A stretch of DNA of 37,892 nt from Limisphaerales bacterium (GCA_003140275.1 PLJQ01000364.1:6518-44409); one strand, 5' to 3'; counted from the first letter of the stretch, positions 9,001 to 24,000 are shown. Numbers: made by a program.

Positions 9001-12000
9001 ATTTACTATTTTGTTAATGTGGATATTGGGACTGAGCGTGCCTCCCTCAATAATGAGCGCAGACTCCACCGGAAAGGTAGGCGGTGGTGGTTCAAAGTCC
9101 ACCACTAACCAAAGCGCACCAACTTCGCCCGGCAATAACGCTAGCTCAAGCGGAGACCAATCATCTTCACAACAAAACAGCGCCTCTTCTTCCGCCCTCA
9201 GCCTCGGAGCAAGCATGCTTTCTTACGAAGCGATGGAGCGAATTGCAAACGACATCGCTTTACGAATTAAATCGAACGTGCCCTCTGTGGATACGGTTTA
9301 CATCATGACCGACTTCCTGAATCCGGTTGGCGCTTTATTCAGATACAAAGCGACCTGCAACCAATTGGACAATCTGGAAAAATCCTATCAAAAAACAATC
9401 GGTGATTACTCGGGAAAAGGCGAGGTGAAGATCGAAGGATTCCTGCCGGCAAATCTCGCGGATGCGGTGAGCGCGGTAACTCAACTGCTTGCCCTCATCA
9501 CCACGACAACAACGCTTTCTGTGGTCTCAGTATCAACGAATGAAATGGCCGTGATTCCGCCACTTGCAAGCAAGCTCCGAGAGAAACAAGTTTCGGTGAT
9601 CTACGTGAATCTGTATGCAAACGCGGAGTATGTAACGCAAAACACCTCCATTTTGCAGAAACTGAATACGACTGCGTCATACAAGGCGATGGCGCAGGTG
9701 CTCATAAATCAAACTCCTCCTACGCTGCCTCCATCGAACCCTACAGCCACTCCTCAGCCAAATCCTGATTACACCAAGCTGCCCGAGAGAAAACGGCAGG
9801 ATCTTCTTGTGCTGAACTCGTTGAATTCTGTTTACGACACTGTGGTTGCCAATGTTCTGACAACCAACGTTATGAGTTCTCTCCTCATGGCTGATTTTTA
9901 TGTAAACAACCTCAAGATGAATAGTGCGATTCTGTTGCTGAAAGTGCTTTATGCAGGAGGAGACAACCGAACCAAATCAAATCCATTTGTCAATATTTTT
10001 ACAGATGGGCCGCGTTTTTCTTATGCTGGGGGGGCCGTCGTTTCTTACGTGCTAGTTGATCAAAGTGGAAAAATCGTTCTGTCTGGTACCACGCGTGATT
10101 TTGCAGGTTACAAAAAGCTCTCCGATTCTCCTGACTATAGGATTCACAATAATCTCAGCGTTAAGAAGTACCAGCGATGAGAATCGCGGTGACATGCAAT
10201 GCTTAACGAACTGATTTTTGATTCACAGCGGTGTTGTTCCCTCGTGCCATGGTGTACTGCGGACCTGTCCCACGCTGCTGTCACAAGAGTGGGCCGGTGG
10301 GACCGACTCGCAAACGCTGCAAGTCCTCAAAACGTGGACGCAGACGAGGAATCATAAGTGTCATTCCTTTCCTTTGTTTTAAGGTTCAGAGGGAAATGAC
10401 ACTCGGATAATGTCGAGCTGAAAAATGAACGACACCTCAGCTTTTTGAAGAACCGCCCCTGGTGCTCGGCATAATCCTAAACCGACATGGCGTTCCGCCA
10501 ACAAAGGGCCGCTTCATGTTCACCCACTAATCGTCCGCGAAGGCACCGGCAGGAACACTCTCACGCTGGAGGCACTTGCCCTCGCGACAATTTCACACGG
10601 TAATGCGGAGCGAGTTCTTTTATCTTGCCTTTCAGATTCCTGGGCAACAGATCGTCGGCCTTAACGCCAAGGACCTTGGCAAGGACAAAAAGCTCCAGAT
10701 CAGGAACGCGCCGTTGTTGATTTTCCAAAGTGGTCACAGCGTTTCGGCTCACGTCCCAGCCAGTTAATTGAAGCCTTACGGCAAGGTGCTCTTGGCTCCA
10801 ACCCTTTTGTGTTCGCAGTTTGCGTACTTGTGGACCAATGACGTTTAGCGGTGAAGGCTTCTTTTTAATGCCTACCACCGTAACAATCAATCATTTATGG
10901 GGATGTTGCCTTTACTGGTCGAATATACATTTAGAAAAAGCTTGCTATGTCTGCGGCAATCGCCGAGAAATGCCATGCTCTAACACCGACACACCCGACA
11001 AGGGGAAAACCACCTTAGCCGTCCGCCGCCGCTCTGACGTGTATTTTTTGTGTTTCTTCGAGGAGCTGTTGGCGTTGTTTGGATAATTGTACGTCCGAAA
11101 ACAGCAGCTTAACCGCCCGATCATTAGAAAGATAATTTGATGCAAACCACAAAAAGCCATCCCCGCCTAACGCCGTTCTTCACCATTACTGCCAGCGTGA
11201 TAGCAGTTGTTTCATTGTTGACTGCCCTCGCCGACGTGCCGCAGCCCGTGCTTTCGATAACATCCCTCGGCAGCAACCAGTTCAACATCGTCATCACCAA
11301 TGCGGTGACGACGACGAATTACACGCTGTTCTGGACGCCGTATCTTGGGAATCCAAGTTATCCTTGGGAAGTCATCGGAATTGCGAACGTTGGTGAAACC
11401 AACTTCATGGTTGACGGGAGCGAATGGGCGAGCGGATTTTTCCGGGCCACTTTGGGAATTGATAGTGACGGTGACGGAGTTCCAGATTGGCAGGATGCCC
11501 GCCCGAATGACCCTGCCATCGGCCTGATGACCGTCACCATCGAAACTCCTACCAATGGCTCCAACGTGCAGTAAGCCGCTAAATTTGGTGAAGCTAATCC
11601 GCCTACCTGACCCCCCATTATGAACACTCGTATGTTGTCTTTTGCCAAGCAATTTCTGATCGGCTGTATAATTGTGCTGGTGACCGCCGACGTGCAAGCC
11701 CAAACGCCCACCGCGTACAACATTCGTTTTTTACGAGGCCGGGGCAGCAACTTGCGCTACTACTCGATGGTCGTTCCTTTGAGCGGACAACAGGCCGCTC
11801 CCTTTGCGGAACCAATCGCCGCGACTTATTATCATCTTAACGCCACCAATTCCGGTTCGCAGGATTACATTACCAACCGATTTGCTTTCACTAATGTTCT
11901 GGCCTCCTTCGGCTCCCAAATGGGCGGGCCTTCGCTTTATTTGAATCAGGCGTACCGCTTCGGGATTTACGCGGGGGATCCGACCCTTTCAGCTTCGTGG

Positions 12001-21000: not shown

Positions 21001-24000
21001 AGCCACTGGACGACAAAAAGTTTGCTGATTATGGCCAACCATGTCTTTCTGGATTTGGGCCGGTGTCTCTGAATCCGGTACGCAACGGAGGACATGTTTT
21101 TGCTCACGGGTTGGCCAGCAAAACCAAGACTGGCAAGCGACTGCGGGAGGTTTACGATTACTGGGCGCAACGGGTTCAACCTGCGATTTGAACCTGCCCG
21201 GCCTCCCAAAATCCGTTACAGACATCTCTCCTAAGCGGAGCTTGAGGCAGTCGGAACGGTGACGCAATAGAGCGCTAAAATACGCATTGGTGTTGCGCCA
21301 TATTCCGTGGATTTTGCGCTGCCGGTTTAACGCCTTTCAACGCCGCTCAACACTGGTCAACGTCAGCCATTCACGCGCCAAAAAATGCCGTTCAAAATCA
21401 CCATTTGGACGCTTCAAAGTAACTGGTTAAAAAGCAGAAATTGGGTATGACACCAACCCCTGCGAAAATGCGTCAGGAAGCCGTTCAAGGCGTGTTCGCC
21501 GGGCCGCTCGACCAAAAGAAACAGCGGCCGTCCGAACGACGGCGCTGCCAACGCCGCCAGGCTGATCGCAATTTTGCGCGTCGAATGCTCCGCGAAATAG
21601 TCGGCTGGCTGATCGCCCATTTGATGCGGGAATGTTCCGCAAACCGGAACGAACGCCGGGACGCGGCGGCAAATGCCTGGCCCATGAAAAAGGAAGGGAC
21701 GCCTGACCTCTAACGTACGTTAGCGGTTGGTCAACGACGCGCCAACGACCGTTGCCGCAAGTTCCAACGATTTTCCAAACGAAAGCCGCCGCAGCGATGC
21801 CGCAGCGTCCAACGATTTTACCAACGACGTTTGCCGCAGACTTCCACGATGTTCCCACGACCGTTGCCGCAAAGAACGCCGCAGCGTCCAACGATGGTTG
21901 CCGCATGGTTCAACGAAACGCGCCGCAGAAATGCCGCAGCCGCCAACGACCGCCGCCGCAGGAACACCGCCACCGTGTCCCGCAGAAAAACCGCCCCCAA
22001 AACTCACCCGGAAAAGACCGCTTTTAGAGGTTGGCTCACTTGGCAGTCGGGAGCGCGTTGCGAGCTTTGCTGCCGCGTTGTGCTGCCGGGCGTCACTGGC
22101 CGAGTCAGGTTGCTTATGCGCTCTAGCGCCGCGCGGCGCACCGCGATTGCTTCGCCCCAGAGTCGGCCCCCGAAGCAATCGCCTTTCCATTTAGCCGCCG
22201 CTGCCGCGCCGGTTCTTTGCTCGGGTCCGGCGCGTCGGTTGTTCCTTCGGTGTCCGCAATCTCAATGCCGCTGTTACTCTTATTGATGAATAAGGGCCGG
22301 GGCGGGCGGCGCTGACGCGCCGCCCCGCTCCGGCCCCGGTGTTGAGAGCGGCTAAAGAGAAAAACTCAGGCGGTTGTCGTTTCAGGGCGATTGGCTTTAA
22401 GCAGGTCCGCCACGACGCGCAAAACGTGTTGCTGCCGGTCACGCGGCAGCTTGCTTACTTCTTCAAACATGCGACGGGCTTTTCCGACCGGGCCACCGCC
22501 GCGTTTCGTGGAGTTTTCCCGGCCCATCAGATAATCCAGCGGGACATTTAGCACGCCCGCCAACTGCACGAGGTGTTCCGGGCGCAGCGCCGTGGTCCGC
22601 CGTTCCCAACCAGCATACGTCTGTTGAGTGATGCCAAGTTTTTCGGCCATCTGTGTTTGCGAAAAGCCAAGTTGCTGCCGGGCGGCGAGCAAGCGTTCTC
22701 CGAAAGGAGACCGTTCCGATTTTGATGGGCGACCTGCTGCCATGCCCGAAGTGTAAACTGGGTTTGAAATAAATACCGAAAGAGCTTGCATGAATTACAA
22801 TTTATACAGTAATTATCCGCCATGTCAAAATCTTTCAAATCGGGCTTGACGGGTTCCGCCAGGAAAAGGCCCGCCATGAAAAAGTTCCGGCGTCCGCTGG
22901 ACGTGTTTGACTCGGAAGTGCTGCAATGCACGTTCGGGCGTTATCCCTGGGACGATTGGGAACGGGACGCGCTGGCGGCGGGCGTGCCGAAGGAACTGGC
23001 GGGCCTGGGCCGGTTGACCGTGCGCGAGGCGTATCAGCATGGTTGGGACGACCGCTTGAAATCGCTCTGCGGCTGGTATGACCAGGGCAAACGCATGATC
23101 AAGCTCGCGCTGCGCTCGCCCGCGACCGCCGAAAAACGCTGGCAGCATCTTCTGGACACGGACGGCTTGCGCGGCCACTACGACCCGAAAACCGGAGAGT
23201 GGATCTCCCACCACTGAAACGCCTATGCCACGCATACCCGAAAACGAACTGCAACGCCTCAAGCGCGAGGTGTCCGTGGCGGTGTTGTGCCGGGACTACG
23301 GCATCGAGTTGAAGCAGATCGGGCCGGACAATCTCATGGGCCGCTGCCCCTTTCACGAGGACAGCACGCCGAGCTTTGGGGTGACGCCCTCGAAAAATCT
23401 TTGGAACTGCCTGGCCGGTTGCGGCGGGGGCGACACCATTCAACTGGTGATGAAGAAGGAGGGCGTGAGCTTCCGGCACGCGGTGGAGATTTTGCGGCGC
23501 AAGACCGGCGAGACGCCGGCGGCGCCGGTCCTCAAGACGCGCCAGGGCACGCAGCACCCGGTCTTGGTGGACCCGGCCACGCAGATGGCCGACCACGCCC
23601 TGCTCAAGCACGTCGCCGATTTTTACCACCAGACGTTTTTGAACGACCCGAAGGCGATGAAATATCTGGAGCAGCGCAAGTGCTTTCATCCCGAGGCGGT
23701 CAAACTCTTTCGCCTGGGCTACGCCAATCGCACACTGGGTTATCGCGTGCCGTCCACGACCGCCGAGGGGAAAAAGCTCAAGGCGCAGTTGCAACGCCTG
23801 GGCATCCTGCGGAAAAGCGGCCACGAGCACCTGACCGGCTCGGTGGTGGTTCCCGTTTTCGAGACCGGGCCGGACGGGCCGACGGGCAACATCGCGCAGA
23901 TGTACGGGCGAAAAATCACGCCCAACTTGCGCGAAGGAACGCCGCTGCACCTGTATCTGCCCGGCGACCATCGCGCCGTGTGGAACGCCGCCGCGTTGCG

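Follow-up and report, generated by a model that had tools for sequence, protein, structure and literature searches.

It is a long-standing question how Rhs proteins, CdiA proteins and type VI secretion system (T6SS) effectors come by new toxic ends, for which the accepted explanation is homologous recombination that draws on orphan cassettes. The same question is raised by a locus of a Limisphaerales bacterium (GCA_003140275.1, PLJQ01000364.1:6518-44409), in which an Rhs polymorphic toxin of 2,995 amino acids (aa) ends in a predicted nuclease tip. The whole stretch of DNA that was analysed, 37,892 nucleotides (nt) in length, is referred to as the window, and all positions are counted from its first letter. 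We consider it likely that this gene encodes a toxin exported through the general secretory (Sec) pathway whose nuclease tip rides on an integrase-bearing mobile unit. The unit spans positions 20257-27826, measures 7,562 bp as a circle, and comprises the tip, an immunity gene candidate, a helix-turn-helix (HTH) gene, a primase gene and a tyrosine integrase gene. The toxin and the elements of the unit are as follows.

11620-20607, + strand: open reading frame (ORF) of the Rhs polymorphic toxin, 2,995 aa, 8,988 nt, ATG start.
20257-20264, + strand: attachment core attL, GCCGCAGA, codons A2880-A2881-E2882, placed by the breakpoint of tandem and circular contigs and by the start of homology in contig L088.
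20257-20607, + strand: PD-(D/E)xK-fold toxin tip, aa 2880-2995 (116 aa), carried by the mobile unit.
20610-21191, + strand: cognate immunity candidate, 193 aa, proposed from its linkage to the tip.
21730-21990, + strand: about ten core-like GCCGCAG motifs interleaved with CCAACGA, forming a 250-bp, apparently non-coding, same-strand array.
22366-22791, - strand: CI/Cro-like HTH repressor (PF01381, E = 1.6e-16).
23225-26362, + strand: primase-like protein, 1,045 aa, with DnaG zinc ribbon and Toprim domains.
26408-27568, + strand: tyrosine recombinase (integrase; PF00589, E = 2e-39), with the R..HxxR..Y residues visible.
27603-28199, + strand: 198-aa ORF, in which the signal peptide and linker of the unit are joined at the attR core to a displaced tip.

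The right border of the unit, attR, is a second copy of GCCGCAGA at 27819-27826, where the 8 bases identical to attL form the codons A-A-D of ORF 27603. At both borders GGAGCG is found 4 nt beyond the core, and the integrase gene ends 250 nt ahead of the attR core. The unit also contains a 131-aa ORF at 22822-23217. The G+C content is 60-64% over about 23-28 kb, compared to approximately 55% in the Rhs gene. TGCCGCAR sites occur 17 times in the window against 5.65 expected, with five of them inside the motif array at 21730-21990. This array may bind the recombinase or the replication protein, as arm-type or iteron sites. Classical att direct repeats around 21.2-27.6 kb were also considered and dropped, as only weak 20-nt matches were present. 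No tRNA genes were found in the window.

The junctions of the unit were found by tracing the identical Rhs protein into other assemblies. The ENA contig ERZ19971174 follows the window from 1620 to 27826 and then continues from 20257 onward with 100% identity, passing through a second copy of the immunity, HTH, primase and integrase genes before it reaches ORF 27603. This path therefore has the unit twice in tandem, bounded by the Rhs gene and ORF 27603. The JGI contig L093 (7,689 bp) runs from 25552 to 27826 and then from 20257 to 25678, and its 127-nt terminal overlap is the usual signature of a circle. The Logan contig L094 consists of exactly 20257-27826 with the core at each end, and another scaffold stops at 27826. 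The source samples include ERZ27254089/92, JGI 3300037261 and SRR7151627. The core-joined junction is thereby seen in the circular contig L093, the tandem contig L090 and the unit-length contig L094. The attP-type joint is read directly from the contigs as ..CACTCCTT-GCCGCAGA-GGGGGGAGCG.., and the predicted attB is ..ACTACTGGA-GCCGCAGA-TACAGGAGCG.. The breakpoints are exact and the reading frames are kept: across the joint, the signal peptide of ORF 27603, a linker and the nuclease tip form an open ORF of 188 aa (8 cluster members over several contigs), with the immunity gene beginning 2 nt later. The cores at attL, attR and 28808 share one codon phase. The predicted excision product is likewise an open frame, a 3,005-aa Rhs protein core-joined to the tip of ORF 27603.

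The same core recurs at the border between scaffold and tip in other DNA. In five further contexts exactly GCCGCAGA-NNNN-GGAGCG stands in front of the tip, with the Ala, Ala, Gly and Ala codons agreeing even at their synonymous positions. Contigs L002, L097, L109, L111 and L088 have the exact core ahead of their tips, next to left flanks that are unrelated; in L088, the DNA of the same tip and immunity gene (97.5% identity) sits on another scaffold, with homology beginning at the core. In an Rhs protein (L002) and an SpvB-TcdB_mid-RHS protein (L097) the core lies 102-111 aa before the stop, and each of these toxins is followed by one or two cassettes that consist of an 87-97-aa leader, the core, a 116-aa tip and a small downstream ORF. 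As the SpvB-type toxin of L097 has the core, the core is not limited to scaffolds of the transglutaminase type, to which the present toxin belongs. L097 (2830-12202 of ENA ERZ25039540 contig_12958) encodes a 2,275-aa protein of SpvB-FG-GAP-TcdB_mid-RHS architecture with the in-frame core 102 aa before the stop, and one of its two downstream leader-core-tip cassettes has the restriction endonuclease (REase) tip with the 193-aa immunity gene. In L069 (exact in-frame core) and L048 (one mismatch) an unrelated tip, an immunity gene, an HTH gene and a primase gene follow the Rhs protein. Many tips in the databases are standalone leader-tip proteins of 188-226 aa; for two such genes, P0070 and P0058, no integrase was found on their short contigs. 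The background frequency of the core is 0.038 per kb over 1.45 Mb of related loci, and because it is this low, the repeated in-phase occurrence of the core at one functional border is not due to chance.

Downstream of the unit, the locus continues with further cassettes, one of which shares a longer repeat with the Rhs gene.

19993-20269, + strand: Ala-rich block, the left copy of a 277-nt direct repeat with its second copy at 29835-30111.
28206-30765, + strand: cassette array, comprising a 108-aa immunity candidate, a 221-aa leader-tip ORF with a 159-aa ORF, and a 259-aa ORF with a 104-aa ORF.

Over 27603-30765, three leader-tip ORFs are interspersed with small ORFs, with overlaps or gaps of 4-7 nt, and each leader-tip ORF begins with a signal-peptide-like segment. 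From this arrangement, they may be expressed as standalone secreted mini-toxins and not be silent orphans. The tip of ORF 27603 is weakly TNT-like (E = 0.13), the one match of the cassette tips to Pfam or NCBIfam. A third copy of the core at 28808-28815 (CTTGCCGCAGA, identical to attR at 11 of 11 positions) marks, in the same phase, the border between leader and tip of ORF 28529 (221 aa). Because the same in-frame core bounds these other leader/tip cassettes, the locus behaves like a toxin-warhead cassette array. The 259-aa ORF (cassette 29667-30446) pairs another tip with the Ala-rich block in its second copy; the two copies of the 277-nt repeat share 88% identity and a near-identical core. 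In another metagenome-assembled genome (MAG; L030), the tip and immunity gene of this last cassette are the actual C-terminal end of an Rhs protein of 3,704 aa. Given this fusion and the shared 277-nt block, classical repeat-mediated displacement is also possible at the locus.

In our reading, the unit also exists as a circle or as a tandem repeat, in which the core lies inside the open 188-aa leader-linker-tip ORF. Recombination at the core, most likely catalysed by the unit's own integrase, would fuse the tip in frame to the Rhs scaffold. The former tip would thereby be left fused to the signal-peptide leader of the unit as the standalone gene 27603-28199, and excision would restore the open 3,005-aa Rhs protein with this tip. 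Read jointly, GCCGCAGA (Ala-Ala-Glu/Asp) and its short flanking arms may be the recombination site of an integron-like warhead system, a broader proposal that we hold tentatively and with slightly less than even confidence. In such a system, a cassette would comprise a tip, the immunity gene that goes with it and the signal-peptide leader that comes next. A tyrosine recombinase on a self-replicating 7.56-kb circle would shuttle such cassettes among Rhs proteins, SpvB-TcB-like Rhs proteins, other scaffolds and standalone mini-toxins, and the cell would swap the toxin mounted on its Rhs protein without homologous recombination.

The tip that is carried by the unit is the outermost of three layers that follow the Rhs core motif DPSGR, the innermost of which is a pre-toxin domain.

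19858-19995, + strand: PT-TG pre-toxin domain, two hydrophobic helices around an FTGE motif (aa 2747-2792).

The PT-TG family (PF14449) scores 26.9 bits on aa 2721-2995 alone and 22.9 bits on the whole protein, compared to a cut-off of 23.5, and the hydrophobic maxima of the two helices are centred on aa 2752-2754 and 2793-2799. The Ala-rich block and the tip complete the C-terminal region. The tip relatives share 47-100% identity and are found on RHS, CdiA/haemagglutinin and Hint backbones. In a profile search of 1.84 billion representatives, the family comprised 1,639 representative clusters and was always C-terminal; none of the 150 matches listed, all of them close relatives, bridged the tip to a named REase family. 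Across 88 aligned tips G-E2897, R2919, D2922, E2931-S-K2933 and Q2946 are invariant or nearly so, with D2922, E2931 and K2933 strictly invariant. The AlphaFold2 (AF2) model of the tip has a predicted local distance difference test (pLDDT) score of 89 and displays an alpha-beta-beta-beta-alpha-beta core, in which E2897 lies on helix 1, D2922 on strand 2 and E2931 and K2933 on strand 3, as in PD-(D/E)xK nucleases. Its top fold matches are AF1548, SfsA, Card1, NucS/EndoMS, BstYI and BamHI, at modest E-values of 7.5e-3 to 0.1. PDB sequence searches with the C-terminal 275 aa and with the tip profile returned nothing usable, and the tip has no match in Pfam or NCBIfam. On the basis of the model, the tip is predicted to act as a PD-(D/E)xK nuclease.

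The gene of the 193-aa protein begins 2 nt past the TGA stop of the Rhs ORF. The protein has 430 homologues of the same length, and a homologue trails the tip in a Trinickia CdiA-orphan locus (L001, 48% identity), in the Logan contig L002 (75%) and in L088. It has no match in Pfam, NCBIfam or the PDB. From its linkage to the tip, we infer that it protects the producer. An original prediction, made from the sequence of the window, had described a three-layered C-terminus with a PT-TG-like helix pair, an Ala-rich module and a PD-(D/E)xK-like tip, followed by an ORF in the immunity position, and all of these elements are borne out by the domain score, the fold model, the invariant residues and the recurrent linkage. 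Its treatment of the three layers as one static tip does not hold: the boundary between the second and third layers is the recombination core, and the third layer travels with the immunity gene in the 7.56-kb unit 20257-27826, which the prediction had missed.

The scaffold on which the tip is mounted consists of the following parts.

11620-11700, + strand: Sec-type signal peptide, aa 1-27, with predicted cleavage between VQA and Q, from hydropathy and the leaders of homologues.
11707-14499, + strand: N-module, aa 30-960, with a beta-sandwich, a transglutaminase-like core, beta-barrels and helical domains.
12682-12984, + strand: transglutaminase-like core, with Cys375 kept, Tyr435 at the His position and Phe450 at the Asp position.
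14500-14874, + strand: predicted disordered linker, aa 961-1085 (pLDDT <50 at aa 968-1085).
14875-19779, + strand: DUF6531 plug (aa 1086-1160), YD/RHS shell, and Rhs-associated core with DPLG...DPSGR (aa 2658-2720).

The Kyte-Doolittle hydropathy of the N-terminus, MNTRMLSFAKQFLIGCIIVLVTADVQA followed by QT, peaks at 1.98 in a segment centred on aa 12-21, which is preceded by basic residues and followed by VQA/Q, and homologues with the same start point have equivalent leaders ending in ..AQ before a T. A lipoprotein reading of L-I-G-C16 was rejected because only five residues separate Lys10 from Cys16. For aa 1-1085, an AF2 model based on 52 sequences reaches a pLDDT of 78 and a predicted template modelling score of 0.79, with order from aa 30 to approximately 960 and disorder at aa 968-1085. 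Foldseek matches it best to full-length TG2, FXIII and TG3 (E 5e-6 to 1e-3, 730-850 aligned columns), and also, with a probability of 1.0, to 3isr, a bacterial transglutaminase-like protease. The N-terminal 1,085 aa and a profile of the transglutaminase core, searched against PDB sequences, returned nothing usable. After the leader, a beta-sandwich of about 300 aa precedes the transglutaminase core, and some relatives have extra N-terminal domains. Transglut_core (PF01841) scores 22.2 bits for aa 355-449 on the fragment and 17.1 bits on the whole protein, compared to a cut-off of 23; the family is on record for the relatives P0003 and P0020. The triad positions were mapped by the transglutaminase motifs GQCWVFA, HCWVESW and ALDPT, which we take as the reference here in place of a computed alignment. 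At the positions so defined, the canonical His and Asp are lost in all relatives (Tyr435 in 52/52, Phe450 in 52/52), and Cys375 is kept in 50 of the 52, with Asp or Ala in the other two. Beside the lost Asp position, His448 (codon at 12961-12963; 45/52, with Gln or Tyr in seven) and Asp455 (codon at 12982-12984; 48/52) are well conserved. The N-module is accordingly described here as a presumably non-catalytic transglutaminase-like module with a probable binding or anchoring role.

The plug begins at aa 1086 as DPVNAVSGEFYIEAT, with DPVNAVSGEF at this position, and DUF6531 (PF20148) matches aa 1086-1160 with E = 2e-14 (54 bits compared to a cut-off of 24.1). In profile searches of the 2,995-aa protein, RHS_repeat (PF05593) matches with E = 1.4e-21 and TIGR01643 with E = 1e-9, and Rhs_assc_core (TIGR03696) reaches 63.7 bits at aa 2658-2719, above its cut-off of 32.5. 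The DPxG...DPxG aspartyl-protease motif is present as ADPLGH at 2693 and FFDPSGR at 2716, DPSGR being aa 2716-2720. Sequence searches match the shell to T6SS Rhs cores in the PDB (8qjb/8qjd, 7q97), to Tse5 and to the toxin complex (Tc) components YenC2 and TccC2, with E-values of 1e-19 to 1e-6. Only three hydrophobic segments are present in the 2,995 aa, namely the leader and the two PT-TG helices. The gene is a single ORF of 8,988 nt. A read-through from ORF 11137 into the same-frame Rhs ORF was rejected, because two stop codons lie between them and the Rhs ORF has its own leader. No T6SS, PAAR, VgrG, TcA or TcB family matched the toxin or the ORFs of the window that were scanned.

The landmarks of the original prediction thus stand where it had placed them (leader, aa 1086, DPSGR at 2716-2720, D2922 and E2931-S-K2933). 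Its classical signal peptide agrees with the hydrophobic segment and the homologous leaders; its pseudo-transglutaminase agrees with the residues at the two triad positions and with the fold matches, and an intact Cys-His-Asp triad was not seen. Among the families it had named for profile searches, RHS_repeat, Rhs_assc_core and PT-TG were recovered; Transglut_core stayed just under its cut-off and no curated Tox-REase family matched. It had likewise noted that no genes for T6SS (PAAR/VgrG-linked) or ABC-toxin delivery are visible, and had treated secretion as a puzzle. This puzzle is a described class, because Zhang et al. 2012 reported the same architecture of Sec signal, inactive transglutaminase and RHS repeats (PMC3482391). 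The observation of the prediction is confirmed, and its interpretation is partly supported.

In the proposed course of events, the signal peptide would be removed after Sec export and the non-catalytic transglutaminase-like module of about 930 aa would bind or anchor the protein, followed by the disordered linker. The plugged YD shell would enclose the C-terminal region, and the aspartyl-protease motif of the Rhs core would cut after DPSGR. The released piece would comprise the PT-TG hairpin, the Ala-rich block and the PD-(D/E)xK nuclease (E2897, D2922, E2931-x-K2933), from which the 193-aa downstream protein would shield the producer, as its linkage suggests.

Several observations weigh against an exported toxin with a mobile tip. 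The empty site, with the Rhs gene joined to the tip at 27827 onward, was not found in the contigs or proteins searched; the short contigs that start just upstream of the core toward ORF 28206 (L102, L103, L106 and L108) all represent the attR flank. The protein collection searched lacks the exact product of 3,005 aa, and the Rhs cluster has one member there. Scans of metagenome contigs with a degenerate att pattern and with a plain attR-side pattern gave 0 matches each, and the collection scanned appears to lack contigs of this junction, because even the attR pattern returned nothing. Tandem copies and a circle are not separable from the contigs alone, and several of the supporting assemblies may share one site or study. 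The exact core is present in only 5 of 61 complete Rhs C-termini of species-representative genomes, and because the number is this small, the mechanism is not general for the family. At the level of domains, Transglut_core scores slightly under its cut-off, no Pfam Tox-REase model matches the tip of the window at E up to 10, and Tox-REase-3 weakly matches 2 of 27 tip relatives (best E = 0.003). One could picture a static locus, in which the contigs are artefacts or stem from a rare microhomology duplication, tip and immunity gene are fixed, and an unrelated prophage-like element has inserted alongside. The missing empty site, the possible relatedness of the samples and the fact that perfect repeats of 7.5 kb are beyond short-read assemblers would fit this picture. 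We regard it as very unlikely, since the junction recurs across several assemblies that differ in naming style (k141_, c_, JGI with its 127-nt overlap, Logan), de Bruijn assemblers are unable to join contigs on an 8-bp overlap, long ORFs stay open across both junctions, and the identical core is found at scaffold/tip borders of unrelated contigs. Tip exchange could also proceed mainly by homologous recombination between pre-toxin blocks, with the integrase moving only its own element. The 277-nt repeat could fuse the Rhs gene to the tip of the downstream cassette, and this is the accepted model for enterobacterial rhs loci in the work cited in PMC5727410. The observed breakpoints, however, map to the 8-bp core and not to the 277-nt repeat, and in the other contexts the left flanks are unrelated and similarity sets in precisely at the core, which makes this explanation unlikely as the main route. 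The core-mediated and repeat-mediated routes are compatible and not mutually exclusive.

Alternatives also concern what the mobile tip and its scaffold do. Since CdiA-CT toxins of Burkholderia that cleave tRNA have the PD-(D/E)xK fold as well, the tip could be an RNase (e.g., a tRNase) and not a DNase; we find this somewhat unlikely, as the best fold matches are the DNA nucleases SfsA, NucS/EndoMS, BamHI and BstYI. For the N-module, the retention of Cys375 in 50/52, His448 in 45/52 and Asp455 in 48/52 relatives would be compatible with an active protease or cross-linker with a rearranged set, for example Cys375 + His448 + Asp455. Such activity is highly improbable in view of the Tyr and Phe that occupy the canonical positions in 52/52, the loss of the Cys in two and the change of His448 in seven relatives, and Zhang et al. 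(PMC3482391) likewise read the domain of this class as inactive. Finally, despite its leader, the toxin could depend for delivery on a T6SS or a Tc-type injector encoded elsewhere, or on the conjugation-like genes of its neighbourhood, as the PDB homologues of its shell belong to T6SS or Tc systems and a weak TrbC/VirB2 match lies at 34441-34788. We give this possibility little credence: the signal peptide is of the cleavable type, the 1,085-aa N-terminal region is without PAAR, VgrG or TcB similarity, no such genes were matched among the ORFs of the window that were scanned, and the genes conserved next to it encode two small secreted proteins and an HTH regulator.

The scaffold itself, which we propose to be exported by Sec and to receive its tip from the mobile unit, belongs to a widespread family. 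The N-module has 51 protein relatives and 158 loci in species-representative genomes, nearly all of them in Verrucomicrobiota MAGs, and a single MAG often has 3 to 6 paralogous loci. The locus-context counts given here were taken over 80 retrieved loci out of these 158. In 75 of the 80 the N-module is followed by the plug and a shell of approximately 1,650 aa, and the remaining 5 end at contig edges. None of the 80 loci with the same N-module and shell contains this tip, PT-TG/Ala block or immunity gene. The family consists of a conserved scaffold with polymorphic ends. Three neighbouring genes accompany the scaffold.

10561-10890, - strand: XRE/Cro-type HTH regulator, divergent from the toxin operon, identified by sequence reading and tblastn homologues.
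11137-11574, + strand: small exported protein, 145 aa, with a signal/anchor, a beta-rich domain and a DGDGVPDWQD motif, a candidate accessory factor.
31054-31464, + strand: small secreted protein, 136 aa, marking the downstream end of the variable region.

By tblastn, homologues of the HTH regulator lie upstream of the Rhs gene in 23/80 loci, and L003 and L004 have an HTH gene at the same position. The 145-aa protein has homologues directly upstream of the N-module in 59/80 loci, including every paralogous copy within single MAGs, and homologues of the 136-aa protein lie 1-2.5 kb past the shell end in 31/80. Both small proteins are co-duplicated with paralogous loci within single MAGs. Neither has a match in Pfam or the PDB, including profile-based PDB searches. 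They may be accessory factors for export or delivery, and the N-module together with these neighbours may have a role in surface display or delivery.

Further observations concern the locus and its surroundings. The repressor gene of the unit is called at 125, 94 or 141 aa among L085, L086 and L093, and assemblies break or differ in the repressor region, where the first 119 nt of L092 and L096 (approximately 22312) are unlike the window. Variants of the mobile element may co-exist, and the differing HTH lengths could be gene-call differences. An IMG/VR scan with the integrase returned one partial relative only. Several MAG records with this Verrucomicrobiota-type locus are titled Bifidobacteriaceae, Binatia, Acidoferrum or Pseudomonadota (L010, L011, L013, L015, L016, L023 and others); such taxon labels look unreliable. 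Upstream of the toxin operon, the window encodes a GloVer (Gloeo_Verruco) repeat protein (75-1130) and a 1,937-aa protein (1147-6960) with several immunoglobulin-type domains and a weak alpha/beta-hydrolase (Palm_thioest) match; both are large surface-type proteins. A MORN_2-repeat protein (32054-32914) is located downstream of the cassette array, a position conserved in 6 related loci, and MORN-variant repeats are familiar from immunity-type proteins. It is followed by a ClpB-like AAA_2 ATPase (33387-34328, - strand), a TrbC/VirB2 pilin match under threshold (34441-34788; 26.6 bits compared to a cut-off of 27.9) and a long ORF that leaves the window (35572 to the end), for which a faint P-loop_TraG annotation exists and the profile scan gave no match. 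Homologues of the ATPase and of the TrbC/VirB2-like gene lie near Rhs loci in L012, L036 and L073, and the region from 33387 to the window end may be part of a conjugative element.

The closest described relatives of the scaffold are the Sec- or type II secretion system-dependent polymorphic toxins of Zhang et al. 2012 (PMC3482391, section 19, Table 1), among whose N-terminal domains an "inactive transglutaminase" is listed. The order in this class is a leader, a transglutaminase domain without the triad residues, RHS repeats and a variable toxin, and the authors (Zhang, de Souza, Anantharaman, Iyer and Aravind) suggested that the domain anchors the toxin via peptide binding. The present protein shares with it the signal peptide, the triad-lacking transglutaminase, the RHS repeats, the variable toxin and the adjacent immunity gene. 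In contrast to that class, the pseudo-enzyme is here part of a module of about 930 aa that resembles whole animal-type transglutaminases, its core lies approximately 300 aa past the leader, and two small secreted neighbours are conserved. T6SS Rhs effectors and TcB-TcC cocoons (8qjb, 7q97, 8cp6, 4igl, 6l7i) have the plug, the YD shell and the DPxG...DPxG core in common with it. Here, however, a Sec leader and the transglutaminase-like module replace PAAR, VgrG and TcA/TcB. WapA of Bacillus subtilis, which is paired with WapI, is a Sec-dependent YD-repeat toxin of a monoderm, anchored to the cell wall. It resembles the present protein as a signal-peptide-dependent Rhs/YD toxin with a C-terminal nuclease and an immunity gene; it differs in its N-terminal module and in its host, as the present family is probably from diderm Verrucomicrobiota. 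WapA-type toxins are also described in PMC12704120.

The exchange of tips has its own precedents. C-terminal displacement with orphan rhs-CT/rhsI cassettes was reported by Jackson 2009 and Koskiniemi 2014, as cited in PMC5727410. As in that process, displaced tips and immunity genes lie behind a full-length gene, and a shared repeat permits re-fusion. In contrast, the breakpoints are here at an 8-bp in-frame core, the tip travels with an integrase and a primase as a circle, and the displaced tips gain a signal-peptide leader in place of a retained core fragment. Tip carriage and exchange at this locus look like a new form of C-terminal displacement. Kirchberger 2017 (PMC5361080) likened T6SS effector-immunity arrays to integrons and stated no evidence of integrase-mediated insertion. 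The present locus resembles integrons in its defined insertion site, in older cassettes that are pushed down the array and in a tyrosine recombinase at the site. Unlike in integrons, the site lies within coding sequence with the frame kept, so that protein fusions result, and the recombinase rides on the cassette. Elements such as e14 or phage 21 in icd, and those that target tRNA genes, insert at the 3' end of a gene and restore an equivalent end, and shufflons (Rci/PilV) invert segments. Site-specific recombination swaps the C-terminal coding part of a host gene in these systems as well; here the replacement is instead a different toxin domain with its own immunity gene. For the tip, the known counterparts are the Tox-REase families, of which Tox-REase-7 has the signature GxxxE, IxD, ExK and Q (PMC3482391, Table 2). 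Both are REase-fold domains that terminate RHS, CdiA and Hint proteins and display the G-x-x-x-E, D, E-x-K and Q signatures; the tip of the window differs in having no Pfam Tox-REase match, and its immunity family has no Pfam model. Steele et al. (PMC5727410) noted integrase-like genes near Rhs loci and left their role undefined. Our literature search found no paper on in-frame, integrase-linked exchange of toxin tips. Thus, the protein belongs to a known toxin class, and the integrase-driven mechanism of tip exchange is probably new.

For the question of how such toxins acquire new ends, the locus provides a concrete, testable case, in which an in-frame site of 8 bp is combined with a candidate recombinase and an apparently circular intermediate, and the same site is found at scaffold/tip borders of unrelated toxins. 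The apparent intermediate itself encodes a complete small secreted toxin, the 188-aa leader-tip ORF. At the same time, the analysis defines a large uncharacterised family of Sec-exported Rhs toxins, mostly from Verrucomicrobiota MAGs, whose two conserved small partners are candidates for the export or delivery step. As a whole, a mobile unit of this kind may explain warhead swapping in such toxins.

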